The translations under genes were made by a program, and so were the position numbers. Positions 39,955 through 59,400 of a stretch of DNA of 64,000 bases are shown piece by piece. The notes below the pieces were generated by a model. It did no database searches, was not told the DNA's origin, and saw nothing but the letters and a program-made list of their open reading frames with translations. Source of the DNA: a virus (lineage: Duplodnaviria > Caudoviricetes); the IMG/VR virus record IMGVR_UViG_3300033463_000110, positions 1,587-65,586 of that record; one strand, written 5' to 3'. Position 1 is the first letter of the stretch; every line of letters starts with the position of its first letter.

Positions 39955-40038
39955 ACACGGGCAAATATATCCTTTCCAAATCAATACACCCCAATAATTA
40001 TTGATTTGTATTGATACGAACTTCGCACCTTTGCGGTG

Positions 40039-41694: not shown

Positions 41695-41717
41695 AACGAA
41701 TTAAAATACACAATGAC

Positions 41718-43989: not shown

Positions 43990-44383
43990 GTTCAACCCCA
44001 AGCACAAGTTCAACAACAAGAAGATGGAGACCCCTGACGGGACGTTCGACTCGAAAGGGGAGTGGGAGAGGTGGCTGTTCTTGAAGGAGGCCCTCAAAAA
44101 CGGCCAAATAAGCGACCTTCGCCGCCAGGTCAAGTACACCCTCATCCCGACCCAATACCGCACGGAAATAGTACACTTAAAGACCAAAGACAAGGAGGTT
44201 CAAAGGGTCGCGGAAAGGGAGATAACATACACGGCGGATTTCGTCTATGAGAAGGACGGGGAAACGGTGGTGGAAGATTTCAAGGGGTTCCCGAACGACC
44301 GTTGGCCGCTCAAGAAGGCGATGATGCTCTATTTCCACGGGGTTGCGATACGCGAAGTGAAAAAACCGACCGAGCCGATTTGA
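43982..44383 (+). CDS. DUF1064-family nuclease-like protein
   Basis: KFNNKK, FDSKGE, ISDLRRQVKY, YTADFVY, VEDFKG. Confidence 0.85.
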   Translation: MFKFNPKHKFNNKKMETPDGTFDSKGEWERWLFLKEALKNGQISDLRRQVKYTLIPTQYRTEIVHLKTKDKEVQRVAEREITYTADFVYEKDGETVVEDFKGFPNDRWPLKKAMMLYFHGVAIREVKKPTEPI

Positions 44384-44478
44384 TTTACTCGCGGAAATGC
44401 GTATCTTTGTTGCGGCGCAGTGATTGTGCTACATAACTCAAAAGGTTTGGTCCCGCCCGTCAGGCGGGGCCTTTTTTA
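44379..44478 (+). promoter_or_regulatory. promoter TTTG-N19-TATCTTTG followed about 40 nt later by a terminator hairpin
   Basis: TTTG 44379-44382, TATCTTTG 44402-44409, GGTCCCGCC/GGCGGGGCC plus T6 at 44449-44476. Confidence 0.6.
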
Positions 44479-44787
44479 GTTCGCGGCTTTCTTCTCGTCG
44501 TCCTTCTTCCCCGCGACCGACTCCGGGTCTATCCCGTTCGTCCTCATCCACGCGGTCATCCGGCGGTAGCGCACAAGGAGTGTGTCCAGGGCCTCGAACG
44601 CCTGGGGCATCGGCGTCGCGTCAATCGTCTCGTCGTGCATCGTGTAGCGGGGGATCTCCGGCATGGCACAGGCGAGGATGACGTGTTCGGCGAAGCGCTC
44701 GTACTTGCAGAGCATGTTCTCCGCGTCGAGCGCCTGGGCGAAAACCTCGTCCAGCCCCGTAATCTCAATCGTCGGCTTGTCTTTCAT
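44476..44787 (-). CDS. hypothetical protein
   Basis: ORF track. Confidence 0.65.
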   Translation of the reverse strand: MKDKPTIEITGLDEVFAQALDAENMLCKYERFAEHVILACAMPEIPRYTMHDETIDATPMPQAFEALDTLLVRYRRMTAWMRTNGIDPESVAGKKDDEKKAAN

Positions 44788-44856
44788 TGTTCATCAGTTC
44801 TTGTCTTTCTATATATAACCTACGATAACGCATTGACAACCAATTCGGGTGGGCGT

Positions 44857-45063
44857 TTACAGTTTCTCTATTTCTTCATCAATTTCTCCCAACTCACGCT
44901 CCGCGATGGCAACGATTTCCGGCAACCATTGTGTCGGAACCGTCAAGTTCGTCGTCCCGAAACGATTGTTCTCGTAACGGGAACGCATCGTGAGGATGGA
45001 CGCCTTCAAGTCGTCGCGCCTCGCATACAGGCGACAGACGAGCTTCGCTTTCTCTATTTCCAT
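44857..45063 (-). CDS. hypothetical protein
   Basis: ORF track. Confidence 0.6.
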   Translation of the reverse strand: MEIEKAKLVCRLYARRDDLKASILTMRSRYENNRFGTTNLTVPTQWLPEIVAIAERELGEIDEEIEKL

Positions 45064-45086
45064 ATCGTTGTATTTTAGTGAGTTAT

Positions 45087-45377
45087 CTATCCGTCAATCT
45101 CCACCTTCTCGAAGATGGAGGCGCGGTCAACAAACCAGACGTTCTTCCCGTCCATCCGGTCCCAGGAGGAGCATTGGATGTCGTTGCAGTTGAGCATCAC
45201 CGTCTCGCCGTTTATCACTTTCCTCCCGCGAGAGAACCAACACCCCTTGCAGGCCGCCGAAACGCTCGCCACACGGGGCCTTCGGACGCATACGAGCCGA
45301 ACCCCGTACCTTGTGAACTCCTCCCCTATGGGAACATACCGGGTGGGGAGCCCGTCGAAATTATAGTTACCATCCAT
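45087..45377 (-). CDS. Cys-containing hypothetical protein
   Basis: CKGCWF...CNDIQCSSWDRMDGKNVWF. Confidence 0.65.
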   Translation of the reverse strand: MDGNYNFDGLPTRYVPIGEEFTRYGVRLVCVRRPRVASVSAACKGCWFSRGRKVINGETVMLNCNDIQCSSWDRMDGKNVWFVDRASIFEKVEIDG

Positions 45378-45511
45378 GACCGCAAAGATAAATAGAAAAT
45401 CAATACAAGCCAATAAAGATTGATGCTTATTGACCGAAAAATGTTAACAAAAACTTGCCGTAGTGAAAACAAAACTTTATCTTTGCACGAAATGTAAAAT
45501 TTATTTGAGTT

Positions 45512-45805
45512 ATGGACATCAAAGAAAACGTGCGCTATATCCTCGAAAAGCGCGGAATGACACAGGTTGACCTCGCGAGAACACTCGGTGTATCGAAAAC
45601 GGCGGTAGGATACTACCTCCGGGGGAACATCACAATCGGGAACTTGCAGAAGATCGCCGACGCCCTTAACACCACCGTCGAAACCATCGTCTCCGAAACG
45701 CCCCTCTACGCCAAACACGAACCTATCCAAGAGAAGGGGAGAGTCACCACCACCACCCTGACATGCCCCCACTGCGGAAAGGAAATCACCATCATCGCAA
45801 AGTAG
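45512..45805 (+). CDS. Cro/C1-type HTH regulator with C-terminal CxxC
   Basis: MTQVDLARTLGVSKTAV, LQKIADAL, TCPHCGK; own promoter TATCTTTG at 45478. Confidence 0.88.
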   Translation: MDIKENVRYILEKRGMTQVDLARTLGVSKTAVGYYLRGNITIGNLQKIADALNTTVETIVSETPLYAKHEPIQEKGRVTTTTLTCPHCGKEITIIAK

Positions 45806-45854
45806 GCAAGTCAATACAAGTCAATCTTTGTTTGCTCGTTTTTGTCTTTTTTGC

Positions 45855-45956
45855 TAACTTCGTAGCCGAACGACGAACAAGGACATATACGGGGAGACCC
45901 GACAACAAGACCCTGGCATCATTGTCGTCGTTCGATGCCGGGGTCTTTTGTTTTTA
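45855..45956 (+). promoter_or_regulatory. attenuator-like leader of the HNH gene
   Basis: Stem 45907-45920/45934-45947 plus T-rich tail. 45867-45876 is the exact complement of 45925-45934. Confidence 0.55.
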
Positions 45957-45962
45957 TGAGGC

Positions 45963-46583
45963 ATGAGCAAAAACTCACAAATCGAGATGCTGGCGCGGGT
46001 AATCGCACTTGCCCTGTCGGACGGCGACACACAAAGGGCGGAAGAAATCATCGCATGGGCAGCTTCCGGCAAGACCGAAAAGACCGAGAAGAAACCAAGA
46101 GACCGAACCGCAACGTTCGTAAAAAAGTACCTTTCTCCAAACGCGCCCTATGACAAGGAGAAGATCGAACGTTTTATAAACCAAAACATTGTTAAAACGC
46201 CGAACGGAGTTGATTTTCAAGTGGTGAGAAACAGGATTGGGAATATGCCGTATGCGGATTTTCTTAAAACGATCTACTGGCGCGGCCTGTCGCTTTTTGT
46301 CAAACGACGGGACGGGTGGAAATGCACCGAGTGTGGCTCAACGGAGAGGGTTGAGGTACATCACAAAACCTATGAGAACCACGGGGCGGAAATCATCCAT
46401 CTTGAGGACATGACAACCCTTTGTGAGAAATGCCACAAGAAGGCCCACGGAAGAAACGAGGAGAAAGAAAAGAAGGGACAAGCACAGACAACAGCAATGC
46501 CGACGGCACCGAGACCGAGGAGGAAACCCAAAACCGGGTCGGCGCTTTCGTTGGCGGACATCCTGGGAGACAATAATTCCTAA
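45963..46583 (+). CDS. HNH endonuclease domain protein
   Basis: RDGWKCTECG...VEVHHKTY...TTLCEKCHKKAH. Confidence 0.85.
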   Translation: MSKNSQIEMLARVIALALSDGDTQRAEEIIAWAASGKTEKTEKKPRDRTATFVKKYLSPNAPYDKEKIERFINQNIVKTPNGVDFQVVRNRIGNMPYADFLKTIYWRGLSLFVKRRDGWKCTECGSTERVEVHHKTYENHGAEIIHLEDMTTLCEKCHKKAHGRNEEKEKKGQAQTTAMPTAPRPRRKPKTGSALSLADILGDNNS

Positions 46584-46586
46584 CCC

Positions 46587-46868
46587 GTGGAAACGTACAT
46601 CAAGCTCTACGACTCCATCCTTTCACTCGACCTCCCCTGGGACGAACGCATCGCCCTTGCCCTTATCCGACAAATGACCGAACCCGGCGACGGCTTCTGG
46701 GCCGGGTACAAAGCCCTGGCCGAACGACTCCATATCCCCAAGTCACGGTGCAAGGCAATCATCCAACACCTCGCACAAATCGGCGCGGTCGAAATCACAC
46801 ACGAAACAATCCTCAAAAAATCACGCATCGTCATCCGAACAAAAACACACTTTTTCGACAAAAAGTGA
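46587..46868 (+). CDS. small winged-helix protein
   Basis: GYKALAERLHIPKSRCKAIIQHL; GTG start. Confidence 0.6.
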   Translation: METYIKLYDSILSLDLPWDERIALALIRQMTEPGDGFWAGYKALAERLHIPKSRCKAIIQHLAQIGAVEITHETILKKSRIVIRTKTHFFDKK

Positions 46869-47424
46869 CTCGCGCATGCGCTCGCCAGCGTGTTACGATA
46901 CGCGTGGGTGCGAGTATTACAAGATATAATATATCTAATCACTTTCTTTTTTTGAGAGTACACTAAGAGATGATAAACCGAGAGAGATAAATCTCTCTCT
47001 GCCAACTTTTCTTTTTTTGTTTTGGACGTTAAAACTACAAAATGCTATATCTTGCAAAAACGCCCTTTTAAGACGCTTTCTCCTCGCAAGACGATAAATC
47101 CCTCGTCCAATGTGAGAAAACGCGCCAAAACGCCTTAAAACGCCCAAAGAAACGAAATCACGACAACGAGTCAAAACCGTCAAGCGAAATGACAACGAAA
47201 TCACGCTTAAAGCATGGTAAATAAAAAAATTTAGTAAGGGGCGAAGGGGACAAAGAAAAAAAAGAAAAACAAAAAGTTTGAGAGGACACACCCCGCCCGT
47301 CGTTCGCCCCTACTTTCCCCCCCGCCCCCCCCGCTCAGCCCGTCGCTCGTGAGTCGTTTTTCGGTCCCGTCCCGGCGCCCGTTCCGTCGGTTACATTATA
47401 CCCTATATTGTAACCTTTTCCGGG

Positions 47425-47943
47425 CTATTTTTTACCCTTTTCCCGGGCTTTTTGGTACAGTGGGCAGTCAGTACATGCCTGCGGAAGGTACGCGCGTACA
47501 GTCCGCCCTTCCCGCGCGGCGTCCCGGTCCGCTTTTTGCGCCTGGATAATTACTTTCAATGCATCCAGCGCCTCCCCTGGATCATCCGCCGTGTTTACTA
47601 ATTCATTTAGTTTGGCCTGCTGTGCCGCCGGGCTGGAATAATCCACGAATTTAGAATTTTTCAAAATAGGCGTTTTTTCTGCGCGGACACGATCCTCCCC
47701 CTGTTCCGCCCTTTGTGCCTGTTCCATTTCTTTTTTTCGTTTTTCCAGGTCCTGGCAAAGGTTAGTAATTTTTTCCATCCCCTTCCATTTTGAGACGGTA
47801 TTACGATTTATATCGTAAACTTGTTTATCTTTTATACCGTCGGCTATTGCATACAGGAGTGTCCAGTCCTGGCACCCGCCGAAAACATGGTAATAAACGG
47901 CGGCTATTTCGCCCGGGGTTAGTCGTTTGTTAATAAGGGCCAT
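47425..47943 (-). CDS. hypothetical protein, possible terminase small subunit
   Basis: N-terminal helical DNA-binding-like region (NRNTVSKWK), helical oligomerisation-like region, CTDC tail. No other TerS candidate was seen. Confidence 0.45.
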   Translation of the reverse strand: MALINKRLTPGEIAAVYYHVFGGCQDWTLLYAIADGIKDKQVYDINRNTVSKWKGMEKITNLCQDLEKRKKEMEQAQRAEQGEDRVRAEKTPILKNSKFVDYSSPAAQQAKLNELVNTADDPGEALDALKVIIQAQKADRDAAREGRTVRAYLPQACTDCPLYQKAREKGKK

Positions 47944-48351
47944 TTGTGCAGCGTTTTGGCACAAATATAGTGCTTTTCGTGGACCTTTGCAAAGGGTTAA
48001 AAATACCCTTTTGGTCAGCCTTACAAAAAGATGCTCGTAACTGCTTGAAAATACGATACTTATAGCGATATTTTTACTTTTATCGAATTACGATAATTTT
48101 GCCTACAATCGACGATCGCCCTGCGGCTGGTACAATGATACATTTTTCAAATTTGAGTCGAAATACAAACGTTTGTACGGGCTTTTTCAATTTTTTGTAT
48201 TATGTTGGTACGGTTAAAAAAGATTTTTACCTTGTTTTGGGGTGGAAATAGCCTACAAAGATAGCCCCGGATTGACTGCGCCGGGCGCCGCCGTTCCGGG
48301 TGATGCTGTTCCGGTCCGCCAGTGTCAGCCTGCATACCCGCGCCCGCTTAC

Positions 48352-48860
48352 ATGCGTACATGCATGAGCCCTTTGGTCAGGTCCGCGCCCCTGGGGCTGG
48401 ACGTCCGCCGCCCGTGTCGATCCCTTCCTTCCGTCGGTCCGGACCTTTGCGCCCGCCCGGGGTTATGCGTACACGGGTGCAGGCATTATGCGTACATGCG
48501 TACACGCGTGAGGGTGTCTTGCAATCCGTTCCGGGGGAAATGTTGATACATGCCCGCAAAGGGCATTTATTTTGCTTTTGGCGGCATTTCGGACAAAATA
48601 CGATAAATCCCTCGGAAATGCACCCGGGGCGAAATACGGCCTATTTCCGCGCCCTTTTCGCGTATCGTTCCCGGGCGCCCTGGAAAATAGCCCTATTTCT
48701 AAAAATTTTTCATTACTCACGGACGGCGGGATTTTTTGGCTCGAAAAAACTTTTAACCATAAAGCCAAATTTTTTTGTTTTGAAAATCGGCCTTCTATGC
48801 ACCCAGGAGGCCGTTTTTGCGCTTTTTTCGTTACTCACTGAAAAAAACTTTTAACCATAA
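48352..48860. repeat. short direct repeats in the non-coding region
   Basis: ATGCGTACA at 48352, 48465, 48488 and 48496; AAAAAACTTTTAACCATAA at 48744 and 48842. Confidence 0.7.
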
Positions 48861-48871
48861 GGTAAAATATA

Positions 48872-48903
48872 TTTGCACGGTTAAATGAAATATTGTAACT
48901 TTG
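48872..48903 (+). promoter_or_regulatory. Bacteroidetes sigma-70 promoter for the early array
   Basis: TTTG 48872-48875, N20, TAACTTTG 48896-48903. Confidence 0.8.
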
Positions 48904-48909
48904 CCCTCG

Positions 48910-49340
48910 GAAGGTCCGGAAAACCGGAAACGGAACACGGCCTGCCTGACACGACGGAAAGCAACGCCGATGTGCGAAAAAAGCCGGAAACGGTCGCGAA
49001 ACGTTTACGCCGCGTGGGAGGCCTAATTGACTGGCCCGGCCTACATTAAGACAGCGAGCCATCCGACGGCGTGAGCCGGGGTGCATGGAAAAAGTTGCTT
49101 TTCCACGCTGGGAACCGAAATGCAACCCGCTTCGATCGTGGATTATTCCACGATAACACGGGACCGAAAACACGGGCTTTTGTTTTGCCCGGTCCGACGT
49201 CCCCGCGCGACAACTCAAAAAGTTAGATTTAGTTTGTTTTCATTTCCGCCCGGGGTTGCAATCGTGCAGCCCCGGTTAATCGTTCAAACATTGACACGTT
49301 TTTACGGTTCCATGTTAAACAATCTAAAATCTTTTGAGTT
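48910..49340 (+). ncRNA. candidate structured leader RNA (about 430 nt)
   Basis: Several hairpins between the promoter and first ATG, e.g. ATCGTGGA-ttat-TCCACGAT and CCGGGGTTGCA-atcg-TGCAGCCCCGG; no credible ORF. Confidence 0.4.
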
Positions 49341-50543
49341 ATGAAAAAACAAAACATTATTAACTGCTACATTGACGGTAAAAAATCCGCCATCGCGATC
49401 GTCGAAGACGTTATTTATCTGATGAGCCATTGTTCCAAATGGGACGGCGGCATCCACCTGAATAACATGCTCGGCTGGAAATACGCCAAACGTGTCTGCG
49501 CCGTCGGTCCGCACAATTACGCGCCCGCCATGGTCCCGGGGTATATTAAAGAAATACTCTTCGACTTTTGCGGGATTGACGCGCAGCAGGTTATTGTCGA
49601 GGGTACGCCGGAATTTGACGCGATCCGCGCAAATATCCGCCGCTGCCCGGGCCGCACCCGGACGGGAAAACGGACCGCCGCGACGGAACCGGAACCGACA
49701 ACGGAACCGGAACCGATCGACGAGCAGCCCGCCGCCCCCGCGCCCGTTGTCAATGAACCCGCCCCCGCCCCGGCCATGAAGCCCGGCGAGATCATGCATG
49801 AAAAGTACATGAAAATTCGCGGGATCATTGATAACCCGTACCTGCCCTGCGCCGCCTATCTTTATGGTCCTGCGGGGTCCGGGAAAAATCATATCTGCGA
49901 ACAGCTCGCCCGGGATTTTGGCCTGGAGTTTTACTATCAAAATTCCGTAACTGACGAGTATAAGTTAAACGGATTTATTGACGGCGCCGGGCGGTATCAT
50001 GAAACGGAATTTTACCGCGCTTTCAAAAACGGCGGCCTGTTCATGTTGGACGAGCTCGACGCCTCCTGCGCCGATACGCTCGTAACCCTGAACGCTGCCC
50101 TGACAAACGGTTATTTCACTTTTCCCGTCGGACGTATCAAGATGCACCCTAATTTCAAATGTATTGCCGCTGGCAATACCTGCGGGCGGGGTGCAACGGA
50201 GGAATATACCGGGCGGACGGTTATCGACGCCGCCTCGTTAAATAGGTTCGTTCCGGTCCGTTTCGGATATTGTGAAGCGATCGAAAACAAGCTCGCCGGG
50301 GGCCGCGCGGATATTCTGGAATTTATCCGGGACCTGCGGAACAGCGCCCGGGCGGCAGGTATTCATATTGTGCTCGGGTATCGTAACATCCAGCGCCTGG
50401 CGGCGTTCATGAAGATGCCCGAAACATTTACAACGGCGGAGGCCGTCGAATACGCCGTGACGGGCGGGTATGATACCGACGAGATCAACATCCTGCGCGG
50501 GGGGCTGCGTTACAAAAACAACGTTTTCGCCCTGGCCATGTAG
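49341..50543 (+). CDS. MoxR/CbbQ/CobS-like AAA+ ATPase with N-terminal domain and Pro/Glu linker
   Basis: Walker A GPAGSGK, Walker B FMLDELD, HPNFKCIAAGN, arginine finger SLNRF. Confidence 0.85.
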   Translation: MKKQNIINCYIDGKKSAIAIVEDVIYLMSHCSKWDGGIHLNNMLGWKYAKRVCAVGPHNYAPAMVPGYIKEILFDFCGIDAQQVIVEGTPEFDAIRANIRRCPGRTRTGKRTAATEPEPTTEPEPIDEQPAAPAPVVNEPAPAPAMKPGEIMHEKYMKIRGIIDNPYLPCAAYLYGPAGSGKNHICEQLARDFGLEFYYQNSVTDEYKLNGFIDGAGRYHETEFYRAFKNGGLFMLDELDASCADTLVTLNAALTNGYFTFPVGRIKMHPNFKCIAAGNTCGRGATEEYTGRTVIDAASLNRFVPVRFGYCEAIENKLAGGRADILEFIRDLRNSARAAGIHIVLGYRNIQRLAAFMKMPETFTTAEAVEYAVTGGYDTDEINILRGGLRYKNNVFALAM

Positions 50544-50603
50544 CAACACATCCCGCCGCCCGGGGGACCGGGGGCGGGGTGCCAAATCTTAAATTTTTGA
50601 GTT

Positions 50604-51437
50604 ATGAGTAAAGATGTTTTTTATTGCAAATCCTTCCCTAATCTTGCAGCGTTTTACGCCTATTTGGACGGCGCTCCGGCAAATGAAAAATTTGCGGGGC
50701 GGCGCCTTGAAAGCGAAACGGGGACGCGATCGTTTACGGGTACGGAGTCGTATTTCCAGGCAAATGAATATTTGCTCCGGGGGGACGCCGACAGCGCCGA
50801 AATGATTAAAAAAGCCCTTCTGACAAAGGTTAAAAGGGCCACGGGGACCGGAACGAAAAACCGACAAATAAACGCCGTCTGCGGGGGCCATGTAAACGTC
50901 CCCGCGATGCTCGTCGGCCTTCCCAAATCCATGAAACGGACCGAAAAAATCCATTATCAAAACGGATCGAAGGTCCTTTCAATTTGCTACAATAACAACG
51001 CCTCGGCGGGTTATTCGGCAAAGGATAAGGCGGAAGTTTCCGCAGCGCTTGTTTCGGCGGTCATGGCCCTGGAAAACAAAGGTTATCGGATCAACCTGTA
51101 CGCCTCCTGCGCCGCTTATGAACCCCTGCGCGGGGGCGGGCGGGAATACGTCGCTAACTTTGTCAAAGTGAAGGACAGCGGCCAGTACATGGACCTGAAA
51201 AAACTCGCGTACCCGCTTGTAAATCCTTCCTTCCAGCGCCGTCATGCGTTCCGGTTCCGTGAAACGATGCCGGGGCTCAAGGGCGGCTGGCCCGGGGGCT
51301 ATGGTTACTCGGTAACGGACGCCGCGACCGTCGAAAAACTTGCACGGGAAGCAGGACTGAACATCAAAAAGATTGTAACCTTTTACGAGCTGGAAGGTAT
51401 GGACGCCGAAAAGATCGCGGAACGGTTACTATCTTAA
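50604..51437 (+). CDS. VWA/CobT-like partner of the AAA+ ATPase
   Basis: Adjacent to the AAA+ gene; degenerate MIDAS-like NNNASAG, ALENKGYRINL, VKVKD...LAY. Confidence 0.6.
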   Translation: MSKDVFYCKSFPNLAAFYAYLDGAPANEKFAGRRLESETGTRSFTGTESYFQANEYLLRGDADSAEMIKKALLTKVKRATGTGTKNRQINAVCGGHVNVPAMLVGLPKSMKRTEKIHYQNGSKVLSICYNNNASAGYSAKDKAEVSAALVSAVMALENKGYRINLYASCAAYEPLRGGGREYVANFVKVKDSGQYMDLKKLAYPLVNPSFQRRHAFRFRETMPGLKGGWPGGYGYSVTDAATVEKLAREAGLNIKKIVTFYELEGMDAEKIAERLLS

Positions 51438-51503
51438 TCCTCGCCACGTCCCCGGGGGCCTGACCGCCGCCGGGGGCGCCAAAACAACCTAAATATTTGA
51501 GTT

Positions 51504-51767
51504 ATGCGTACTTTGAAAATCAAATCCCGCGAATACGCGCGGGCGGCGAAATTCGTTATCATCAACGACAACTGCCTCTCCTGGGGCCTGGGTGCCATCG
51601 ACGTGGACGAGTGGAAGCTCTACGACATGCAGATCGGGGACTGGTACAGCCACGAAAACATCTACTCCGGCTACATGGAAAAGTTCGAGGCATACGCCGT
51701 GGAAATGCTCGTGAGGGGCGGGGTGCCCGCGAGCGAGATCGTCATTTCCGGGGCCATCGACCGATAA
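51504..51767 (+). CDS. hypothetical protein (cassette)
   Basis: Starts at GAGTTATG. Confidence 0.75.
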   Translation: MRTLKIKSREYARAAKFVIINDNCLSWGLGAIDVDEWKLYDMQIGDWYSHENIYSGYMEKFEAYAVEMLVRGGVPASEIVISGAIDR

Positions 51768-51845
51768 CACGCGCCGACAACGGGCACGGCCCCCTGACCG
51801 GGGCCGTGTTCGCCAAACGTCTAACCTTATTAAAATTTTTGAGTT

Positions 51846-52337
51846 ATGGAAACAACCACGAAAACAGTCAATCCGTTTGCAAATGCAATCCGTCCGGGAG
51901 TCCGCGCCTACGCAAAGATGGCCGGGGGCTTGCTCCAGTACGCCGCCTGCATCGAGCGGGCCTTCGAGCGCGAAATGGCAACCCGGGCCACCTTCTGGGG
52001 CCGGGAGTACAAGCGGCTCACGACCTTCGCCAACGACTTCGCCATCGCGGAGTGTTTCGGGGATGATGCCATCCTCGACACATACAAGCGGGCGGTCCGG
52101 GAGTGGATCGGGAACTACAAGTACATGACCGAGCTCATCATGGTCCTCAACTGGTTCTGCTGGTTCTGGAACGACTGCGACAAACGCGACCTTGAACTTT
52201 CCCGCCTCTACACCGACCTCTATTATGAGGCCCGGGACGCCTTCGATGAGTTCTACGACACGAAGGAGGACGACCCGGACGACGTGAGGGAGAAAAAGGC
52301 CGTGGCATGCCGGTACTACTTCGAGTGTACCGACTAA
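51846..52337 (+). CDS. hypothetical protein, aromatic-rich helical (cassette)
   Basis: Starts at GAGTTATG. Confidence 0.8.
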   Translation: METTTKTVNPFANAIRPGVRAYAKMAGGLLQYAACIERAFEREMATRATFWGREYKRLTTFANDFAIAECFGDDAILDTYKRAVREWIGNYKYMTELIMVLNWFCWFWNDCDKRDLELSRLYTDLYYEARDAFDEFYDTKEDDPDDVREKKAVACRYYFECTD

Positions 52338-52442
52338 AAGCGAAAAGCAAAGGAGCGGGGGGGGGTATCCCTTCCAGACGGAAAAAGGGGGCGGGGGCCT
52401 GGTAAGCGCCCGCCCCCTCAAAAATCTAAAATTTAATGAGTT

Positions 52443-52919
52443 ATGGAAATTATCGGTTCTTTATTCGCAATCCTCGCGGGGCTGGCCATCGCCGCCCTGC
52501 TGAAAATGATCGACCCGCCACGGAAAGTCGCCCCGGAAATAGCCGAAAACGGCGATTTAGGCGACTTTCCCGAACCGGACGAAGATCGGGTACATGAGAT
52601 CGTGAAAGCCGCTTATCTTGACCTAAAAAGGCAAAGGGCGGTATCTCACGGGCCGTGGCTCGCCGCGCTCCTGGACGGGGGCGCCGGGTTCTTCTTCACC
52701 GGGACCGTGGACAAATGGGGCCGGGGGCGGGCGGAGCAAGAGTGGCGGCGGGTGGAGCCCGCCGTGGCCCTCACCGCCGTCCGCTGGACCATCCGCGAAC
52801 TCCTCGCCGCGCCCGTGTCCTACGACAAGGACGGGAACGAGATGCCCCGCCGGACGTTCAACCTCGACGTCCTGCGCCGGGCGGAGTCCGAACTTGCGAA
52901 CATGGAGGAGGGGGCCTGA
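52443..52919 (+). CDS. membrane-anchored hypothetical protein (cassette)
   Basis: N-terminal TM helix; starts at GAGTTATG. Confidence 0.75.
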   Translation: MEIIGSLFAILAGLAIAALLKMIDPPRKVAPEIAENGDLGDFPEPDEDRVHEIVKAAYLDLKRQRAVSHGPWLAALLDGGAGFFFTGTVDKWGRGRAEQEWRRVEPAVALTAVRWTIRELLAAPVSYDKDGNEMPRRTFNLDVLRRAESELANMEEGA

Positions 52920-52959
52920 CCGCGCCCTCCTTCGCTACGAAACCATTAAATTTTGAGTT

Positions 52960-53034
52960 ATGTTTTGGATCATTGTTCCCATGTTCGTTTTCTGCGCCGC
53001 CCTGCAACTGTGGGACCGCGACAATGCCGCCTAA
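52960..53034 (+). CDS. 24-aa hydrophobic microprotein (cassette)
   Basis: MFWIIVPMFVFCAALQLWDRDNAA, starting exactly at a hairpin plus GAGTTATG element; absent from the ORF track. Confidence 0.6.
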   Translation: MFWIIVPMFVFCAALQLWDRDNAA

Positions 53035-53112
53035 AACGGCCTACAATGAAACGAAATGCCCGGGCGGGGGTGATACCCTACCCGGGCGCGAAAACCCTTA
53101 AATTTTTGAGTT

Positions 53113-53361
53113 ATGGCTAAAACAATTTACTTTATCGTGATGGACACGACGAAAGACCGCGAGGACCCTTATCAGATGAGGTTTTACGAGGAAAAAGCGT
53201 TAAACGACATATCCGGGTATCTTCGCGGAGTTGCAAAGACACATAAGACGGATATTTCGTCTTTGAGGCTTTTCATCGCGCCGGATAGGGAAACATGGAA
53301 ACGCATGTGGAACGAGTTTTCGGCCCGCGTGGATTATTCCCGATACGGCGATATTGTCTAA
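53113..53361 (+). CDS. hypothetical protein (cassette)
   Basis: Starts at GAGTTATG. Confidence 0.75.
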   Translation: MAKTIYFIVMDTTKDREDPYQMRFYEEKALNDISGYLRGVAKTHKTDISSLRLFIAPDRETWKRMWNEFSARVDYSRYGDIV

Positions 53362-53430
53362 AACAAACATGGGCCGGGAGTCCTGACCGACTCCCCGCCC
53401 GCCAAAACAAACCCTTAAAATCTTTGAGTT

Positions 53431-53796
53431 ATGATTACTACATCCGACCTTTTCAAGATGGCCTATGAAGGCTCGTTCTACACCATCATCGGCTGCGGCG
53501 GTTCCATCCAGGACTGGAAGGACGGCTACAACAACCTCCTCGCGGAGAAGAAAATCGGCAAGCCGAGCGCCTGGTATCAGTTCACCGGGGCGGACATGAA
53601 CGCCGAGTACGGACTCACCGGGAACAATGCGTACCCGGACAACCTCCGGTTCCTGTGCTTTCCCCTGGACGGGCTCGACGTTGCGCGGCTCGCGATGTTC
53701 AAGCTCCTTGCGGGGGATCGTTGGTTCGACGACATCGTGGACAACAACCTCCGCCGCGAGGAAGAACAACAGGAGCGGGCGGCCCTGGCCGACTGA
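53431..53796 (+). CDS. hypothetical protein (cassette)
   Basis: Starts at GAGTTATG; DRWFDDIVDNN motif. Confidence 0.8.
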   Translation: MITTSDLFKMAYEGSFYTIIGCGGSIQDWKDGYNNLLAEKKIGKPSAWYQFTGADMNAEYGLTGNNAYPDNLRFLCFPLDGLDVARLAMFKLLAGDRWFDDIVDNNLRREEEQQERAALAD

Positions 53797-53868
53797 CGAA
53801 AAGACACAAGAGGGTGCGCCCCCGACCGGGCGCATCTTCTCCAAAATCATTTCTAAATCTTTTGAGTT

Positions 53869-54210
53869 ATGGACAATATCGTAAACAAACCCGTAAGGAC
53901 ATCCTCCGACATCGTTTCGCTTATCTATGAAACCGGGATGCTCACGCCGTTCCACAAAGACGCTTACTTGTTCTTTGACGATAATAACGTGCTCTGCGCC
54001 CGCGACAACGCAACGCAGTTCGCCTATGTGAAAAGACGGACGGGCGACCCCACGCCAACCCTGGAAGAAATCGAGTTCTGCAAAGGATTGAAGAAGGTTG
54101 CCGAATACTCAAGCCGACTTTCTTTCATGGACTTTATCATCATGTGCGGGGGCTCCCATTATTCCTTTGCCACGGAAAAGGTAGAGGGGCCGGGACCGAA
54201 TGGGTTCTAA
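53869..54210 (+). CDS. hypothetical protein (cassette)
   Basis: Starts at GAGTTATG. Confidence 0.75.
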   Translation: MDNIVNKPVRTSSDIVSLIYETGMLTPFHKDAYLFFDDNNVLCARDNATQFAYVKRRTGDPTPTLEEIEFCKGLKKVAEYSSRLSFMDFIIMCGGSHYSFATEKVEGPGPNGF

Positions 54211-54282
54211 AAAGGAACGAAGGGCGGGGGCCGATACCTCCCGCCTTTTGCCAATGTTCAACCAATTAAATCTAAATGAGTT

Positions 54283-54477
54283 ATGTATCAAATCACGCTT
54301 ACCAAAGAACAGTTTGACCTCTTGAGCGAGTGCGTACTTGGCACCATCGACTCCCTGCGGAAACTATGGGAGGCGATGCCCATCACAAGCGGGCGCGTCG
54401 GCATCCAGGAGCAAATCATCCGGTGCAACGACATCATGCGCGAACTTTCCAAAGTTTACGAGGAGGACGAGGCATGA
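54283..54477 (+). CDS. hypothetical protein (cassette)
   Basis: Starts at GAGTTATG. Confidence 0.7.
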   Translation: MYQITLTKEQFDLLSECVLGTIDSLRKLWEAMPITSGRVGIQEQIIRCNDIMRELSKVYEEDEA

Positions 54478-54665
54478 GAAACGAGAAGGCAAAGGTGGGG
54501 GAAATTATCAAGATAGTGGCCCTCGACGATCCCTACGACAAGACCTATCCCGGGCGCGTTGGAACGGTCGAGTACATCGACTCGCTGGGCCAGCTGCACG
54601 GGACCTGGGGAGGCCTCGCGGTTATCCCCGAAGTAGATAGTTACACAATCATCAAACACGCTTGA
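54474..54665 (+). CDS. DUF4314-like SH3-fold small protein
   Basis: GTVEYIDSLGQLHGTWGGLAVIPEVD; ATGA overlap. Confidence 0.75.
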   Translation: MRNEKAKVGEIIKIVALDDPYDKTYPGRVGTVEYIDSLGQLHGTWGGLAVIPEVDSYTIIKHA

Positions 54666-54667
54666 TT

Positions 54668-54871
54668 ATGGCAAAAGAAGTAACGAAAGACAACCTTTCT
54701 TCCTACGCGAAAGAACACCTGCACGACACCGCATCCGCAGTCACCGCCGGGATACTCGACGCAAAGACGGCACGGGGTCACGTCCGCGAACTGTTTTACC
54801 TTTCCGCGACCTTCGGGCTCGGCCTCCAGGAGGAGGCGCGGGCCATCATCAAGGAGATGGAAAAGAAGTAA
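54668..54871 (+). CDS. hypothetical protein
   Basis: ATG 54668. Confidence 0.65.
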   Translation: MAKEVTKDNLSSYAKEHLHDTASAVTAGILDAKTARGHVRELFYLSATFGLGLQEEARAIIKEMEKK

Positions 54872-54927
54872 GAGCAAAGGCCGGGCGGGGGGCGATACCT
54901 CCCCGGCCTTCCAACCCCTTTTGAGTT

Positions 54928-55137
54928 ATGAGTATCAAGCAATCCATTACCGAGGCCGTGGCCCGTGGTGCCGTGGCCGTCTGGACCAAAGCCGACCATC
55001 GGCGGATGGAGGTGGGCCGGGGCATCAATGGCTACCGGGTTGCCTTCTCCACCGGGAACACCTACTTGTACGGCCACACGGGGCTCTCCCTCCGCGAGGC
55101 CGTGTCCATCGCTAACCGTTGGGTACTCTCCCATTGA
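54928..55137 (+). CDS. hypothetical protein (cassette)
   Basis: Starts at GAGTTATG. Confidence 0.7.
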   Translation: MSIKQSITEAVARGAVAVWTKADHRRMEVGRGINGYRVAFSTGNTYLYGHTGLSLREAVSIANRWVLSH

Positions 55138-55206
55138 CACGGGGGCGGCTCCCCGACACGGAACCGCCCTTTCCAATTTTGAATTATTCTAAATACCTGT
55201 TTAGTT

Positions 55207-55419
55207 ATGACTACCACACTTATCCATTGCCGGGACCGGCAAGTGTTCGATGCTGTTGCAAGAGAACTTACCGATTGGAGAACGGAATACACCGTACTCC
55301 CACAGGCTTTTCAGTTCATCCTCCCAGGGAGCAGTATCTTTGGTGTACGGCAGTTCCTTGATGCAAGGAGCGTCAACACGGCAAACATCTTCTTCTATAC
55401 AACGGAGGAGGATGACTGA
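55207..55419 (+). CDS. hypothetical protein (cassette)
   Basis: Starts at TTTAGTTATG. Confidence 0.7.
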   Translation: MTTTLIHCRDRQVFDAVARELTDWRTEYTVLPQAFQFILPGSSIFGVRQFLDARSVNTANIFFYTTEEDD

Positions 55420-55473
55420 TGGGTTGTCCGGCTTGACCGCCGGATGATCCGCCAAACCAAAAATTTTAGAGTT

Positions 55474-56304
55474 ATGAGAACACTACAGGAAGCCATCAAC
55501 AAGATGGAAAACCGGGGAGGGGCTGGCGCCTCGCTCCGCAAGCATTTCGCATCCGTCGGCATCCGCGAGTGGGGCGACATCAACCGCGCCGCGCTTTACG
55601 ACTTCGCCGACCACCTCCGCGACTCCGTTGCGCCCGGCACCGCAAAGACCATCTGTGCATACGCAAAAAGCCTGTTCCACCGCTACGAGGATGACGTGAA
55701 ACTCCCGGCGGGATGGGAGGGCATCCTCCAGGCGAAGGGGGACCGGACGCGGGGAACCTACCTCACCCCGGCGGAACTGAAACAACTCGAAGCCGTCGAA
55801 ACGAAATCCGACACCGAACGGATCGTCCTCGTCGAGGCCCTTATCGAAGCCTACACGGGGGCGCGTATTAGCGACGTGCAGACGTTCACGGAGGAGAACT
55901 TCCGCGACGGGTTCCTTACCTACACCTCCCAAAAGACAAAAGTCACGGCCACCATTCCCGTAAGCGAAAAGACGCGGGGGTGGATACGGTACGCACAGGA
56001 ACACCGGGCGGACGAGCCTACCCTCATGAGCCGCAACCGCATCATCCGCCGCCTTTGCAAGCGGGCCGGTATCGACGCGCCCGTAAAGACGCGCCGGGGC
56101 GGGGTGGAACGGGTCACGCCGAAATGGGAGGCGGCATCGAGCCATGCGTTCCGCCGTTCGGCGGCATCCAACCTTATCGCGGCGGGGGCATCCCTCAACG
56201 ACGCGAAACTCTGCCTCGGCCACACCTCCACGGCCATGACCGAGCGCTATGTGGTCTGCACACGCCCGAACCTTTCCGCGAAGGCGATGGCGTATTTCAT
56301 GTGA
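55474..56304 (+). CDS. tyrosine recombinase lacking an arm-binding domain (276 aa)
   Basis: YTGARISD (R), QKT (K), HAFRR, LGHTS...ERY; starts at GAGTTATG. Confidence 0.9.
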   Translation: MRTLQEAINKMENRGGAGASLRKHFASVGIREWGDINRAALYDFADHLRDSVAPGTAKTICAYAKSLFHRYEDDVKLPAGWEGILQAKGDRTRGTYLTPAELKQLEAVETKSDTERIVLVEALIEAYTGARISDVQTFTEENFRDGFLTYTSQKTKVTATIPVSEKTRGWIRYAQEHRADEPTLMSRNRIIRRLCKRAGIDAPVKTRRGGVERVTPKWEAASSHAFRRSAASNLIAAGASLNDAKLCLGHTSTAMTERYVVCTRPNLSAKAMAYFM

Positions 56305-56332
56305 TTGTGCCAAACCACGGCACAAAAGAAAG

Positions 56333-56372
56333 AAAAGGGGCTGGGGTACTTCGGTATCTCCGCCCCTTTTTT
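56333..56372 (+). terminator. intrinsic terminator with UUCG loop
   Basis: GGGGCTGGGGTAC-ttcg-GTATCTCCGCCCC followed by T6. Confidence 0.75.
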
Positions 56373-56488
56373 GTGCCTTAAAGTCCCGTATTTCGCATTA
56401 TCTTTCAAAAAACGACTAATCCCTTGCGGAAAAATTTTGGCGGTCCGAAATCAATTCTTATCTTTGCATCAATCAAAGTCAATACAAA

Positions 56489-56631
56489 TTTGCTATTGTT
56501 GATTTTGATTGCGTACCTTTGCCCTGTACCGAGGGCGAAACGGTGCGCCGACATAGCAAGATAGTGATACCGCAAGGTTGAAACTATAAAGTCCGCATCA
56601 GTTGTTCGCCCCAGCCGATGCGGAATTTTTT
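56489..56631 (+). ncRNA. candidate small RNA of about 100 nt
   Basis: TTTG-N21-TACCTTTG (56489-56521), hairpins, terminator TCCGCATC/GATGCGGA plus T6; second promoter at 56436-56466. Confidence 0.35.
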
Positions 56632-57030
56632 GTATAAGCATCGGTTATGGCCGCCCAAGCCGAGCGAACTGGCCGACGGGGATAAGGTACGAGCAAATAG
56701 GTCTTTGAGAACGAAAGGACTTACGCCGGTTCACCTTCCGAAAAACAAAGAACCCATACCCACGAAGTCGTGCGCCAGGAGCAGGCGGGGACAAAACAAG
56801 TGGGAGCAACCGTTACCCATAGGACTCCCGACCTTCAACTTACCCGCCCGGCACGATGGACTCCCAACACGGGTGAGGGGGAAAGGCACGGTCCCACCGC
56901 CGACCGAGAACGCCTTTTCGGGAAACAAGTTCTCAAAGTGTGACATTTCTTTTTTTTTTAGGGATGTAGCCTTATCCGCCGAAAACTCGCGCCGCACAGA
57001 GTTGAAGGGATATAAGGGAGGCGGTATTGT

Positions 57031-58182
57031 CTATTTGAAAAAATCCGCGCCCGACAATCTCTCCACCGCCTGTTCCTTTGAAATCCGAAGGTATCTTTCA
57101 AATGCAGAAATGCTCTTGTGCCCCGATGCGAACATACAATCCCGGACTGGTACGCCGGAAAGGTAAAGGGCGGTCAATGCGGAGCGCCTGAATGTGTGGC
57201 TCTGCACCATTTCCCAGCGGTAGGTGGGCGATCCGTCCTTCTTCCTCCTGGACTTCGGAAGTTCCACAACGCCGTCTATCCCGGACTCCCTCGCAATCGT
57301 CTTGATATACCGGTTGAAGACAACCTGGTTCACCTCCGGGGCTTTCCCGCCGTTGCGCTCCAGCAGAAGAACAAGACGGGGGGATGCCGGGAGTACAACC
57401 TTGTCGTCCGTCTTTTTCTGCACAAACTCCAGCTTGCCGTCCCGAATGTTGTCCGTGGTCAGACGTGAGTAGTCGGAGAACCTGGCGGCGGAGTAGTAGC
57501 CGACGAGGGCGAGGTCGCGTACCTTCCCGTACAACTCGTTTCGTGGGTTGTATTGCCACAACAGTTCAATCTCGTCGGCGGTCAGCGCGATTGCCTCCGT
57601 CTGTTCCTTCTTTGATTGGAACTCCCGGAAATCCTGGTTGGTGTGGTATTTCAACTTGTACCCTTCGTGCATGACGACCTTGAGCCTCGCGCCGATGTTC
57701 CACCGGTAGTTCACCGAATAACCTTCGTCCTCCATTTTCCTTTGGAGGCGAAACCAATAGGCGGAGTCTATCCCGTCCCAATTCTCTTTCCGGCCCATGA
57801 GCCTTGCCACAACCCTGACGGCAAGGGCGCGTTGCCTCTGCGACGATGACGGCCTGTTTCCCCAACTCTCAAAGTATTCCCAGAAGGTCGGGACGTGGCC
57901 CGCCCGCACCACCTTCGTTTCATCGCCAGTGACGGCGTAGTGGATTGCGTTAAGAACGTCCTCCTCGGTACGGGCGGACACCTCCCTTTCGGTCAAACGG
58001 GAGTGGATGGTAAGCAAATCGCGGAGTACGCGGCGGTCCTTGCATTTCGCCTTGATGGACTTCGCGCCGGAGTCCCACAGGGCTGGGTCGGTCGTGAGTC
58101 CGGTCGCTTTCCGATACTGCTTTCCGTTATGAGTGGCGGAAATTCGGATTGAATTTTTGTGGATTGTGAACGTGTGCTGCAT
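57031..58182 (-). CDS. phage integrase (tyrosine recombinase with arm-binding N-terminus)
   Basis: N-terminal QYRKATGLTTDPALWD, ARFSD, QKKT, HTFRR, SGHKS...ERY. Confidence 0.92.
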   Translation of the reverse strand: MQHTFTIHKNSIRISATHNGKQYRKATGLTTDPALWDSGAKSIKAKCKDRRVLRDLLTIHSRLTEREVSARTEEDVLNAIHYAVTGDETKVVRAGHVPTFWEYFESWGNRPSSSQRQRALAVRVVARLMGRKENWDGIDSAYWFRLQRKMEDEGYSVNYRWNIGARLKVVMHEGYKLKYHTNQDFREFQSKKEQTEAIALTADEIELLWQYNPRNELYGKVRDLALVGYYSAARFSDYSRLTTDNIRDGKLEFVQKKTDDKVVLPASPRLVLLLERNGGKAPEVNQVVFNRYIKTIARESGIDGVVELPKSRRKKDGSPTYRWEMVQSHTFRRSALTALYLSGVPVRDCMFASGHKSISAFERYLRISKEQAVERLSGADFFK

Positions 58183-58743: not shown

Positions 58744-59400
58744 TCAGTCGAGGGTTATCGCCCCGTTCACCAGGGCTATCTGGATGATGTCGTCGGTCGG
58801 CACATCGAAGGGGGCGTACTCCGTGTTGTCCGAAACGCACTTGATGTACCCATCCTTCTCCGACGGATGGACGCGCTTTATCATAATCCCCTGGCTCCGG
58901 GTCAGGATCACATACGCCCGGTTCCATTGTAGAAAATATAGGTTGTCGAGGGCCACCTTCTTGCATGCCACGATGTCCCCGCCGTTGTACTTCGGCACCA
59001 TGCTATCTCCCTTCACGCGGATTAGGAAATCGGAGTTCTTGAACTCGGAAACCGTATAGAAATCTTCTATCCGTTCATCGTCGTATGATGGTAAGCCCGG
59101 ACCGGCGAAAGCCTCCGCCGGGATAAGCGGAAGGGAGTGTGCGGAAGGAGAAGGGGGTGGGGTGGGGGTGGTGCTGGTAAGCATTTCGCCTTCACCGGCC
59201 ATAAGCCATTTGGGAGAAATCCCCAAATCGGAGGAAAGAATAGCGTACAAAAGCGGGTATCCAGGTGCGCTTCTTTTTCCGCCGATAATGTCTTTAAGCG
59301 AGGACACGTCCTTGCCGATCCGTCGGCAGAACTCCGACTTGTTTCCGCCGCAAATCGCGTCTATGGCGCGTTGTAGCCTGTCCTGAATATTGCTGTCCAT
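58744..59400 (-). CDS. CI-like repressor (HTH plus S24 peptidase)
   Basis: NKSEFCRRIG HTH, VKGDSMVP, IMIKRV. Confidence 0.92.
   Translation of the reverse strand: MDSNIQDRLQRAIDAICGGNKSEFCRRIGKDVSSLKDIIGGKRSAPGYPLLYAILSSDLGISPKWLMAGEGEMLTSTTPTPPPSPSAHSLPLIPAEAFAGPGLPSYDDERIEDFYTVSEFKNSDFLIRVKGDSMVPKYNGGDIVACKKVALDNLYFLQWNRAYVILTRSQGIMIKRVHPSEKDGYIKCVSDNTEYAPFDVPTDDIIQIALVNGAITLD

Follow-up and report, generated by a model that had tools for sequence, protein, structure and literature searches.

The 64-kb stretch of viral DNA analysed here (hereafter the window, i.e. positions 1,587 to 65,586 of the 65.6-kb single-contig virus record IMGVR_UViG_3300033463_000110) carries an array of 15 genes on the plus strand (49341..56304), in which almost every gene is preceded by a GC-rich hairpin and by a short motif abutting the ATG. 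What is this repeated unit, and at which level does it act? An initial annotation had offered two readings: an RNA element involved in processing, stabilisation, antitermination or translation, or attC-like single-stranded DNA sites through which the tyrosine recombinase encoded by the last gene shuffles one-gene cassettes. The answer favoured here, to which we assign a probability of roughly 0.5, is a composite linker that combines a sense-strand hairpin, a possible internal start box and a joint for homologous recombination between cassettes of ORFans, following the logic of the promoter-early stem-loops (PeSLs) of T4-type phages RB49/phi1 and others (PMC2839356; PMC4122927).

According to this reading, the linker would lie between ORFan cassettes that are exchangeable and mostly consist of a single gene, within an accessory block of a temperate siphovirus of Bacteroidota. 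The 5' half of the linker is an RNA hairpin of exactly 13 bp, with a loop of the U-turn type (N-UGAY-M) and an unpaired CCAA tail. Most likely, this hairpin labels the 3' side of each cistron or shields it, and is read by a specific protein or ribonucleoprotein. The 3' half of the linker is an A/T-rich box ending in TTTGAGTT right before the ATG, with TTTG at -8 to -5 resembling the -7 element of sigma-A promoters. Transcripts begun at this box would start at or a few bases from the AUG and would add to a read-through operon. As direct repeats of 60–80 bp, the linkers would also act as joints at which cassettes are gained, lost or replaced, probably via the phage's RecT/YqaJ proteins. The sequences themselves show the anatomy of the unit, its covariation, strand bias and array-specificity, the mosaicism of cassettes and the operon frame, whereas promoter activity, leaderless starts, the role of the hairpin and the route of recombination are inferred.

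Pattern and protein scans of IMG/VR and JGI metagenomes identified at least 18 related loci with the same architecture, whose arrays reach 21 units. Unless stated otherwise, counts given below refer to a set of 139 non-redundant units taken from the window phage and 15 related metagenomic loci (16 loci).

A covarying sense-strand hairpin at the internal junctions of the array

The initial annotation had placed a GC-rich hairpin with a stem of 10–14 bp ahead of each of 13 gene starts. Such a hairpin indeed precedes 12 of them, with (G/T)AGTTATG following each at a distance of 17–35 nt to the ATG. The exception is the first start at 49341, which lacks a junction hairpin of the array type and has a different one, with loop ATCG, 65 nt upstream. 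The pairing of the stems held true as well, but their length is more uniform than proposed, namely 12–13 bp in the window. Across the unit set, the arms measure 13 nt in 95 and 12–14 nt in 129 of the 139 units, the loop is 6 nt long in 93, and the distance from hairpin end to ATG ranges from 17 to 39 nt with a peak at 22–25 nt. The upstream stop codon mostly lies 0–12 nt before the stem.

The 93 units with six-base loops reveal a common anatomy. Their loops take the form N-U-G-A-Y-M, with U, G and A at positions 2–4 in 88, 92 and 82 units, respectively. Pairing amounts to 84–100% at pairs 1–13 (84% at pair 13) but only to 5% at pair 14. G prevails in the 5' arm and C/U in the 3' arm, G·U being the commonest pair at position 11, and the stem base follows the pattern NGGG...YYCN and then CCAA. 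Directly 3' of the stem stand C (91), C (66), A (87) and A (79), and the base 5' of it is A in 68 units.

While length, loop and tail are kept, the arms vary in sequence but remain complementary. Among the 93 units, 86 possess distinct 5' arms, and the two arms of a unit pair at 12.0 of 13 positions as compared to 7.5 when arms are swapped between units. A gapless alignment of 85 hairpins from relatives showed 92.2% paired cells, as compared to 58.5% after shuffling and 48–55% with the partner slid, although the paired percentage is somewhat inflated by the choice of units by their best hairpin. Double-sided changes were found in 331 cells versus 98 in the shuffled control, and all 13 pairs have changed on both sides. 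Moreover, G·T pairs outnumber A·C pairs five to one in the 93 units (186 versus 38). Selection therefore acts on the fold of the sense strand, which indicates a structure in the mRNA and not a cruciform in DNA.

A covariance model (CM R1) trained on relatives only, with no window sequences, returned 12 matches in the window, all on the plus strand and one per array junction between 50546 and 55458. Eleven have E-values up to 8e-4 and one has an E-value of 0.08; nothing elsewhere in the window scored below 0.1. The search thereby recovered precisely the internal junctions. Hairpin 1 (50546..50588; 15.3 bits, E 0.08, also seen in the predicted fold) has the atypical loop GGGGACC. It is followed by hairpin 2 with a 13-bp stem, loop CTGACC and tail CCAAAA (51444..51485; 39.9 bits), hairpin 3 with loop CTGACC (51778..51819; 41.2 bits), hairpin 4 with loop CTGGTAA (52383..52425; 33.9 bits), hairpin 5 with loop CTGACC (52900..52941; 36 bits) and hairpin 6 with loop GTGATA (53054..53095; 37.5 bits). 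The second half of the array contains hairpin 7 with loop CTGACC (53367..53408; 36.6 bits), hairpin 8 with loop CCGACC (53806..53847; 37.2 bits), hairpin 9 with loop CCGATAC followed by the palindrome TGTTCAACC (54215..54257; 22.1 bits), hairpin 10 with a GATACC-type loop (54874..54917; 22.7 bits), hairpin 11 with loop CCGACAC (55137..55179; 23.7 bits) and, ahead of the recombinase gene, hairpin 12 with loop TTGACC (55417..55458; 34.6 bits). The recurring loops reported at the outset (CTGACC, CCGACC, TTGACC, GATACC-type and CCGACAC) are therefore all in place.

The hairpin is specific for the arrays. It is confined to internal junctions, being absent before the first gene and after the last, and CM R1 found no match in 1.05 Mb of unrelated viral and Bacteroidota loci. 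Rfam searches yielded nothing at the gathering score over the 64 kb and, over 44–60 kb, chance-level matches only (E up to 1). That the hairpin represents a new structured RNA motif, with 139 instances and no Rfam family, is well supported. As to the two initial readings, the sense-strand fold, the covariation and the fixed length, loop and tail support an element acting at the RNA level, with the particular functions suggested for it as candidates only.

In 20 of 135 units, the upstream gene actually terminates at the UGA of the loop; this applies to the window gene 52443-52919, which ends within the loop of hairpin 5 (52917-52919). Consequently, the terminating ribosome must melt the 5' arm in these cases. 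A role of the loop TGA as an in-frame back-up stop was considered and rejected, since the frame counts (33:21:20) are not significant. In the 108-nt junction 52338-52442, a second small hairpin is formed on a run of nine G residues (52357-52365), upstream of the standard unit.

Candidate partners of the hairpin

The fixed length, loop and tail of the hairpin point to a specific partner. To our knowledge, Bacteroidota possess neither Hfq nor ProQ and make no use of Shine-Dalgarno sequences. Ordinary, factor-independent termination can be dismissed as the task of the hairpin: as noted in the initial annotation, the stem is followed by CCAA(A) and not by a U tract, and five or more T residues within 8 nt after the stem occur in 3 of the 139 units only. 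No canonical plus-strand terminator was detected at the junctions. Two attempts to read the hairpin as part of a promoter also failed. The loop as a -35 hexamer (TTGACC) would be separated from the A/T box by 21–35 nt, which is too long and too variable, and the position of CCAAA, considered as a -33 element, follows the hairpin and not the ATG.

The hairpins could alternatively act as boxB-like sites, each recruiting an antitermination or elongation factor to the nascent RNA for read-through. The constancy of loop and length implies a specific binder, the array has a long structured leader, and the commonest loop, CUGACC, is one purine off the CUAACC hexaloop of phi21 boxB. The latter forms a GNRA-like UMAC turn with a C-C closing pair and binds the N peptide (PMC12550061; PDB 1NYB). 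Both loops comprise six bases, the second of which is U, and are framed by C...C or G...A. However, the arrays would contain 12–21 sites per operon instead of one or two, the stems comprise 13 bp rather than ~5–7 bp, and no boxA was identified. Nor did the phage proteins include an N-like protein or a convincing arginine-rich small protein (off-frame artefacts only), and neither a NusG-/Q-type family nor any other antiterminator, sigma factor or RNase is present among the 25 Pfam families listed of 38 matched. Finally, there are no terminators within the array to overcome. We therefore consider recruitment of such a factor improbable, and take the resemblance to phi21 boxB as one of the loop only, which provides a lead towards a protein-binding turn but no family membership.

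A stem of 12–13 bp followed by (N)CCA also recalls the geometry of the acceptor plus T arm of tRNAs, and the hairpins might be minihelices cut by RNase P or handled by tRNA enzymes. In tRNA-His, an extra pair, -1:73, is outermost, and RNase P favours a U before the stem. The pair one in from the stem base is G-C in 71 of the 93 six-loop units and would correspond to G1-C72 if the outermost pair were equated with -1:73. Yet, the outermost pair is formed in 84% of the units and leaves no free discriminator, the base before the stem is mostly A rather than the favoured U, and the six-base loop N-UGA-Y-M differs from a 7-nt T-loop. Neither ARAGORN nor Rfam reported a match. We regard a tRNA-like identity of the hairpin as very improbable.

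Cassettes are exchanged at the linkers

Comparison of cassette order and content between relatives, as proposed in the initial annotation, revealed extensive mosaicism. Protein clustering identified as shared anchors the AAA ATPase, the DUF7192 protein, a 158-aa protein, a two-gene pair and the recombinase; the remainder is largely unique cargo. Gene content thus differs widely and breakpoints fall into the linkers, as anticipated, but the shared genes mostly keep their order (apart from one apparent swap between L098 and L099), and the breakpoints occur at no fewer than two places within the unit.

Three cases illustrate the exchange. Between loci L057 and L099, a precise indel comprises one gene plus one hairpin, and its junction lies within ~25 identical start-box bases. 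In L098 as compared to L155, an extra cassette stands between two near-identical hairpins. Between L167 and L099 only the ORF is replaced, with the start box as the left border and the 5' edge of the next hairpin as the right border. More generally, 22 of 32 homology-block ends in five pairs fall within -75 to +6 of the motif ATG, whereas ~6 would be expected from a zone that covers ~18% of the average cassette. The block ends cluster at +2 to +4, -6 to -38 and -54 to -69 relative to the ATG. Several crossover points in one repeated linker are expected from homologous recombination and not from one fixed site. Exchange therefore likely proceeds by homologous recombination at the repeated linker rather than site-specifically. 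The idea of shuffled one-gene cassettes thus survives inasmuch as the element marks the borders of exchangeable cassettes, but not with respect to a site-specific mechanism. A short-homology recombination system of the phage's own is encoded at the left end of the window on the plus strand, consisting of a RecT annealase (3-533, cut by the window edge) and the adjoining YqaJ-like exonuclease (539-1471).

The last array gene (55474-56304, plus strand) indeed encodes an intact tyrosine recombinase of 276 aa with a complete catalytic set, as had been annotated. Could the array be a phage-borne relative of integrons, in which this enzyme moves cassettes by acting on the hairpins as attC-type single-stranded DNA sites? 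The resemblance is considerable: the cassettes lie on the same strand, look mostly promoterless and consist for the most part of one gene and one 3' imperfect palindrome that is kept in structure and not in sequence. A likely outer promoter is present, a tyrosine recombinase adjoins the array and is found on every complete array, cassette content is variable, and the duplicated hairpin around the one extra cassette in L098 would fit as well. The G·T wobbles would also be tolerated by a folded top DNA strand. However, the fold is favoured on the sense strand, and the enzyme is not of the IntI type. It matches Xer models of NCBIfam weakly and below threshold, and no integron-integrase model. IntI4 (2a3v) is its weakest PDB match (E 2.6e-4 over 55 residues), and 276 aa leave no room for the IntI-specific insertion. 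The hairpins, in turn, have equal 13-nt arms without fixed extrahelical bases and without R''/R' or L boxes. Their conserved GAGTT is unpaired and located 17–39 nt outside the stem, whereas attC sites would have GTTRRRY at the stem base. Breakpoints at the ATG, in the spacer and at the 5' edge of the hairpin do not agree with a single crossover point, and the recombinase gene is situated at the distal end on the same strand, like an ordinary cassette.

The cultured, distantly related Bacteroides phage BI-TP1 provides an additional argument. In this phage (L171), a syntenic plus-strand block (39839-48437) ends with a homologous small tyrosine recombinase (33% identical), which occupies the same last position, convergent with the integrase and after a ParA-like gene. 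No CM R1 hairpins were found in BI-TP1. The recombinase of the window looks like a generic Xer-like enzyme and resembles one more array cassette. A resolvase-type role appears more likely than cassette capture, because the BI-TP1 homologue holds the same place after the ParA-like gene without such hairpins. The integron-like reading, which had been the second proposal of the initial annotation, accordingly retains hardly any probability.

A start box abutting the ATG

The second half of the unit is the motif in front of the ATG. In agreement with the initial annotation, (G/T)AGTTATG is present at all 13 listed starts. Nine starts carry exactly TTTGAGTTATG, while AATGAGTTATG is found at 52443 and 54283, GTTTAGTTATG at 55207 and TTAGAGTTATG at 55474. 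A representative start box reads TAAATTTTTGAGTT-ATG (50587..50606, plus strand); the others end at 49343, 51506, 51848, 52445, 52962, 53115, 53433, 53871, 54285, 54930, 55209 and 55476. The exact 11-mer of the motif occurs 12 times in the window. With up to two mismatches there are 31 matches, as compared to 13.6 +/- 3.7 in shuffled sequences, and none of 100 shuffles reached 31. Outside the array, the motif is located at 45512 (plus strand), at 44434 (minus strand) and at the repressor start at 59400 (minus strand).

Alignment of the 139 units at the ATG yields the logo A-13 A-12 A-11 T Y T-8 T-7 T-6 G-5 A G T T ATG. G-5 is found in 129 units (93%), T-6 in 109, T-7 in 97, T-8 in 82, A-11 in 85 and T-12 in 16, while A-13 and A-12 are the best-kept upstream bases. 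For comparison, the -7 element recognized by sigma-A of Flavobacterium spans -12 to -5 and leaves 4–5 nt to the start site (PMC6847099; PMC9723704), its consensus being TAnnTTTG (PMC6847099). The arrangement TTTG-AGTT-ATG may thus correspond to the register of a -7 element with the A of the ATG at +1, and the resulting mRNA would be leaderless.

A further copy of the start box is inverted and not followed by an ATG (TAAATCTAAC-TTTTTGAGTT; 49209..49232, minus strand). Such an ATG-less inverted copy lies 115–125 nt upstream of the first array gene in 8/8 relatives (besides the window, loci L001, L096, L155, L167, L099, L020 and L057) and persists even where GAGTT has disappeared from the start of gene 1, as in two phages. 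It may drive an antisense or non-coding RNA as a divergent promoter, or else act as a pairing partner of the first-gene start region. In the predicted fold of the window, the inverted copy pairs with 49322-49340.

In BI-TP1, 3 of 13 starts in the syntenic block show TTTG-N4-5-ATG with other bases at -4 to -1; these three share CACCCTTTAAA-N-TTTG-N4-5-ATG. Starts of the TTTG-N4-5-ATG type and the layout of the block are common to BI-TP1 and the LoVEphage group. Three observations speak for a promoter function of the start box: the G-5 in 93% of the units, the conserved inverted copy lacking an ATG and the TTTG-N4-5-ATG starts of BI-TP1.

The array is framed as one transcription unit

A likely outer promoter of the array is provided by two canonical sigma-A -7 boxes, TATATTTG and TAACTTTG (at 48867 and 48897; 48867..48904, plus strand), just downstream of a U-tract terminator (48788-48823). 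A canonical -7 box is located 443–474 nt upstream of the first array gene in 7/8 relatives, and canonical boxes are nearly missing within the arrays (0–2 per 4–8 kb). At the other end, a hairpin with a U tract closes the array (56333..56373, plus strand); a U-tract terminator follows the recombinase gene in 9/13 relatives. The upstream canonical promoter and the terminal terminator thus frame the array as one transcription unit, and any internal starts would be nested within a read-through operon.

Between promoter and first gene extends a non-coding leader of ~440 nt (48905..49340, plus strand). ORFs of the leader on either strand, including 48835-49086 (minus) and 49120-49344 (plus), are not conserved in seven relatives. 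The leader is structured (fold z-score -2.1) and contains a hairpin with an AATCG-type loop and an 11-bp stem (49250-49275; 9–11 bp in relatives), whose loops AATCG/AATACG/AATCCG are kept in the window, L001, L096, L056/L155 and L020. Close to the first gene it also includes the palindrome TGTTAAACA (49313-49321), which is conserved in relatives.

Near-palindromes of the form TGTTnAAC(A/C) are present between the CCA tail and the start box in some units and always at the first gene (49313-49321 and 54255-54263 in the window, and many units in relatives). They are candidate operators, perhaps for the conserved HTH_3 regulator encoded at 45512-45805. Palindromes of the form TTGTGC(C)-N7-9-GGCACAA at 47944-47964 and 56305-56325 bracket an 8.3-kb block holding the array; the right-hand copy comes immediately after the stop codon of the recombinase gene, as in L097 and L150, and most relatives lack both. 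The possibility that the array is flanked by longer inverted repeats or lies in an invertible segment was considered and rejected, since there are two short palindromes only, unconserved in most relatives.

Internal starts or a single operon

Several observations speak against the composite linker. T-12 and A-11 do not occur together in any of the 139 start boxes, position -12 being A in 115 of them, although T-12 is nearly invariant in host promoters. TTTG at -8 to -5 is present in only 69 of the 139 units and no unit combines it with TA, while a canonical TAnnTTTG lies ~20–27 nt upstream of the HTH gene in 6/6 relatives, that is in the same phages. At the start of this gene, 45512, the motif is located inside the 5' untranslated region (UTR), downstream of the canonical box, which suits a role in the mRNA. 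Furthermore, leaderless mRNAs are rare in Bacteroidota (3.7–5.5%; PMC7366714; PMC9723704), and a -7 box alone does not account for the invariant AGTT. Nor does a mere stabiliser account for the fixed length, the UGA loop and the CCAA tail of the hairpin. With regard to the recombination joint, selection against broken genes would also cluster homology ends between genes. Given the lack of T-12 A-11 and the presence of canonical promoters elsewhere, the start boxes may be weak or factor-dependent promoters, or none at all.

The most serious alternative, which we regard as tentative but worth retaining, is that the whole array is transcribed from the upstream promoter alone and that an RNase of host or phage uses hairpin plus CCAA as a processing site, cleaving at the base of the hairpin. 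Every cistron would then obtain a 3' hairpin and a 5' UTR of ~20 nt, and the box TAAAT...GAGUU-AUG would act on the mRNA, either as an A-rich ribosome-binding region of the Bacteroidota kind or as a cleavage site, comparable to T7 RNase III sites or Cas6 processing of pre-crRNA. The frame of one conserved canonical promoter and one canonical terminator, the restriction of the hairpin to internal junctions, its sense-strand fold, the missing T-12 A-11 and the motif in the 5' UTR at 45512 all agree with this model. So does the peak distance of 22–25 nt between hairpin and ATG, which is near the usual Bacteroides 5' UTR of ~23 nt (PMC7366714). Moreover, initiation in Bacteroidetes usually involves an A-rich, non-Shine-Dalgarno signal ~7–9 nt upstream of starts (PMC6028130), and A-13 to A-11, with the best-kept A-13 and A-12, would fit this signal. 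However, A-3, a known positive determinant of initiation (PMC6847099), is absent, position -3 being always G, and we know of no translational role for TTTG at exactly -8 to -5. The inverted copy, conserved in 8/8 relatives including the two without GAGTT at gene 1, is not merely an anti-start partner, and BI-TP1 exhibits the TTTG-N4-5-ATG geometry without AGTT. In addition, no candidate RNase was found among the phage proteins in the listed Pfam families.

In a related scenario, which is possible but likewise clearly behind the composite linker, hairpin plus CCAA would be the site of a dedicated RNA-binding or RNA-cutting factor that splits the operon into insulated one-gene messages, while the linker doubles as a gene-capture joint. 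If true, the unit would constitute a natural plug-and-play expression standard, by which captured ORFans are expressed correctly in a host without Shine-Dalgarno signals. Depending on which half of the unit performs as proposed, a processing or insulating hairpin would be a natural cistron insulator, and a start box acting as an internal leaderless promoter would offer a compact expression part for Bacteroides engineering.

Relation to known systems

The unit is best filed with the PeSL-type linker cassettes, its hairpin half being a new sense-strand RNA motif. In both systems, a G-then-C-rich stem-loop after the upstream ORF is followed by an A/T-rich segment and then, ahead of the next ORF, by a box of the promoter type, the motif is repeated between small ORFans in a hypervariable block, and indels or replacements cross over inside the motif with no need for a dedicated recombinase. 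For PeSLs, the shuffling mechanism was shown experimentally in RB49 and phi1 (PMC2839356), and the pattern of exchange seen here matches it. PeSLs belong to lytic myoviruses and their stem-loops were shown to terminate transcription; here, the phage is a temperate siphovirus and the hairpin has a fixed 13-bp stem, a UGAY loop and a CCAA tail without a U tract. Instead of -35/-10 boxes and a Shine-Dalgarno sequence, a Bacteroidota -7-like box is set against the ATG, and one canonical promoter-terminator frame encloses the array. Linker-mediated cassette shuffling, known from lytic T4-type phages, would thus extend to temperate siphoviruses of gut and rumen Bacteroidota, a major but little-studied group.

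As in the array, T7 RNase III sites and Cas6-processed CRISPR repeats place a hairpin between all cistrons or units of a single long transcript, from which stable monocistronic fragments could arise. However, a classical RNase III site would require a longer stem than 13 bp, and in contrast to CRISPR repeats the stems vary in sequence; no corresponding nuclease was identified among the phage proteins. Morons of temperate phages are promoter-gene-terminator units near the attachment site. Like these, the array contains accessory genes by the integrase end of the genome with their own flanking signals, but its signals form one uniform module repeated over more than 12 genes in a row, and no factor-independent terminator is formed by the downstream hairpin.

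The phage, its host and the cargo of the array

The window encodes a terminase, a portal, a major head protein and a tape-measure protein as well as, on the minus strand, an integrase of 383 aa (57031-58182) and a CI-like S24 repressor (58744-59400). The combination of integrase, CI-like repressor and structural genes identifies the virus as a temperate siphovirus. Several lines of sequence evidence point to a host among the Bacteroidota of gut or rumen. Shine-Dalgarno sequences are missing at most window genes, regulatory genes possess canonical TAnnTTTG boxes, and BACON and BspA-type LRR domains were found among the phage proteins (Pfam). Judged by the terminase, the closest phages with a name (32% identity) are Bacteroides phage LoVEphage, Bacteroides phage BI-TP1 and Phocaeicola phage PV4-TP1. 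More distant members of the small recombinase family are almost confined to Bacteroidota genomes, Rikenella and Rikenellaceae ranking first. A search of 185,579 species-representative genomes revealed no integrated copy and distant recombinases only (up to 35% identity, nearly all from Bacteroidota), and no DNA similarity to GenBank phages was detected. Public metagenomes hold 210 homologues of the recombinase, many on contigs of 57–72 kb, and a 49%-identical recombinase is carried by a bacterial contig of 387 kb.

The plus-strand array begins with genes for a CobS-like AAA_5 ATPase (49341-50543) and a DUF7192 protein (50604-51437), followed by twelve small ORFans and the recombinase gene. The genes 54474-54665 and about 54669-54871 overlap their neighbours and lack both hairpin and start motif. 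Array cargo proteins have a median length of 88 aa, and across loci 102 of 107 lack a Pfam family; the families found are AAA_5, DUF7192, GP88, DUF4314 and Phage_TreK. The arrays thereby bring together more than 100 families of small proteins without assigned function beside the lysogeny module, a candidate pool for host takeover or anti-defence. Very short hydrophobic ORFs of ~24 codons fill whole cassette slots with a hairpin and start box of their own, as is the case for one of the window ORFans, a 24-codon ORF (52960-53034), and in L155 (7396), L001 (8642), L096 (6536) and L161 (1699).

Between recombinase and integrase, ~600 nt are non-coding (56440-57030). This stretch gave no Rfam match and contains the canonical -7 boxes TATCTTTG (~56458) and TACCTTTG (~56517) as well as a hairpin with a U tract near 56590-56630; it may harbour a small RNA gene and probably lies close to the attachment site.

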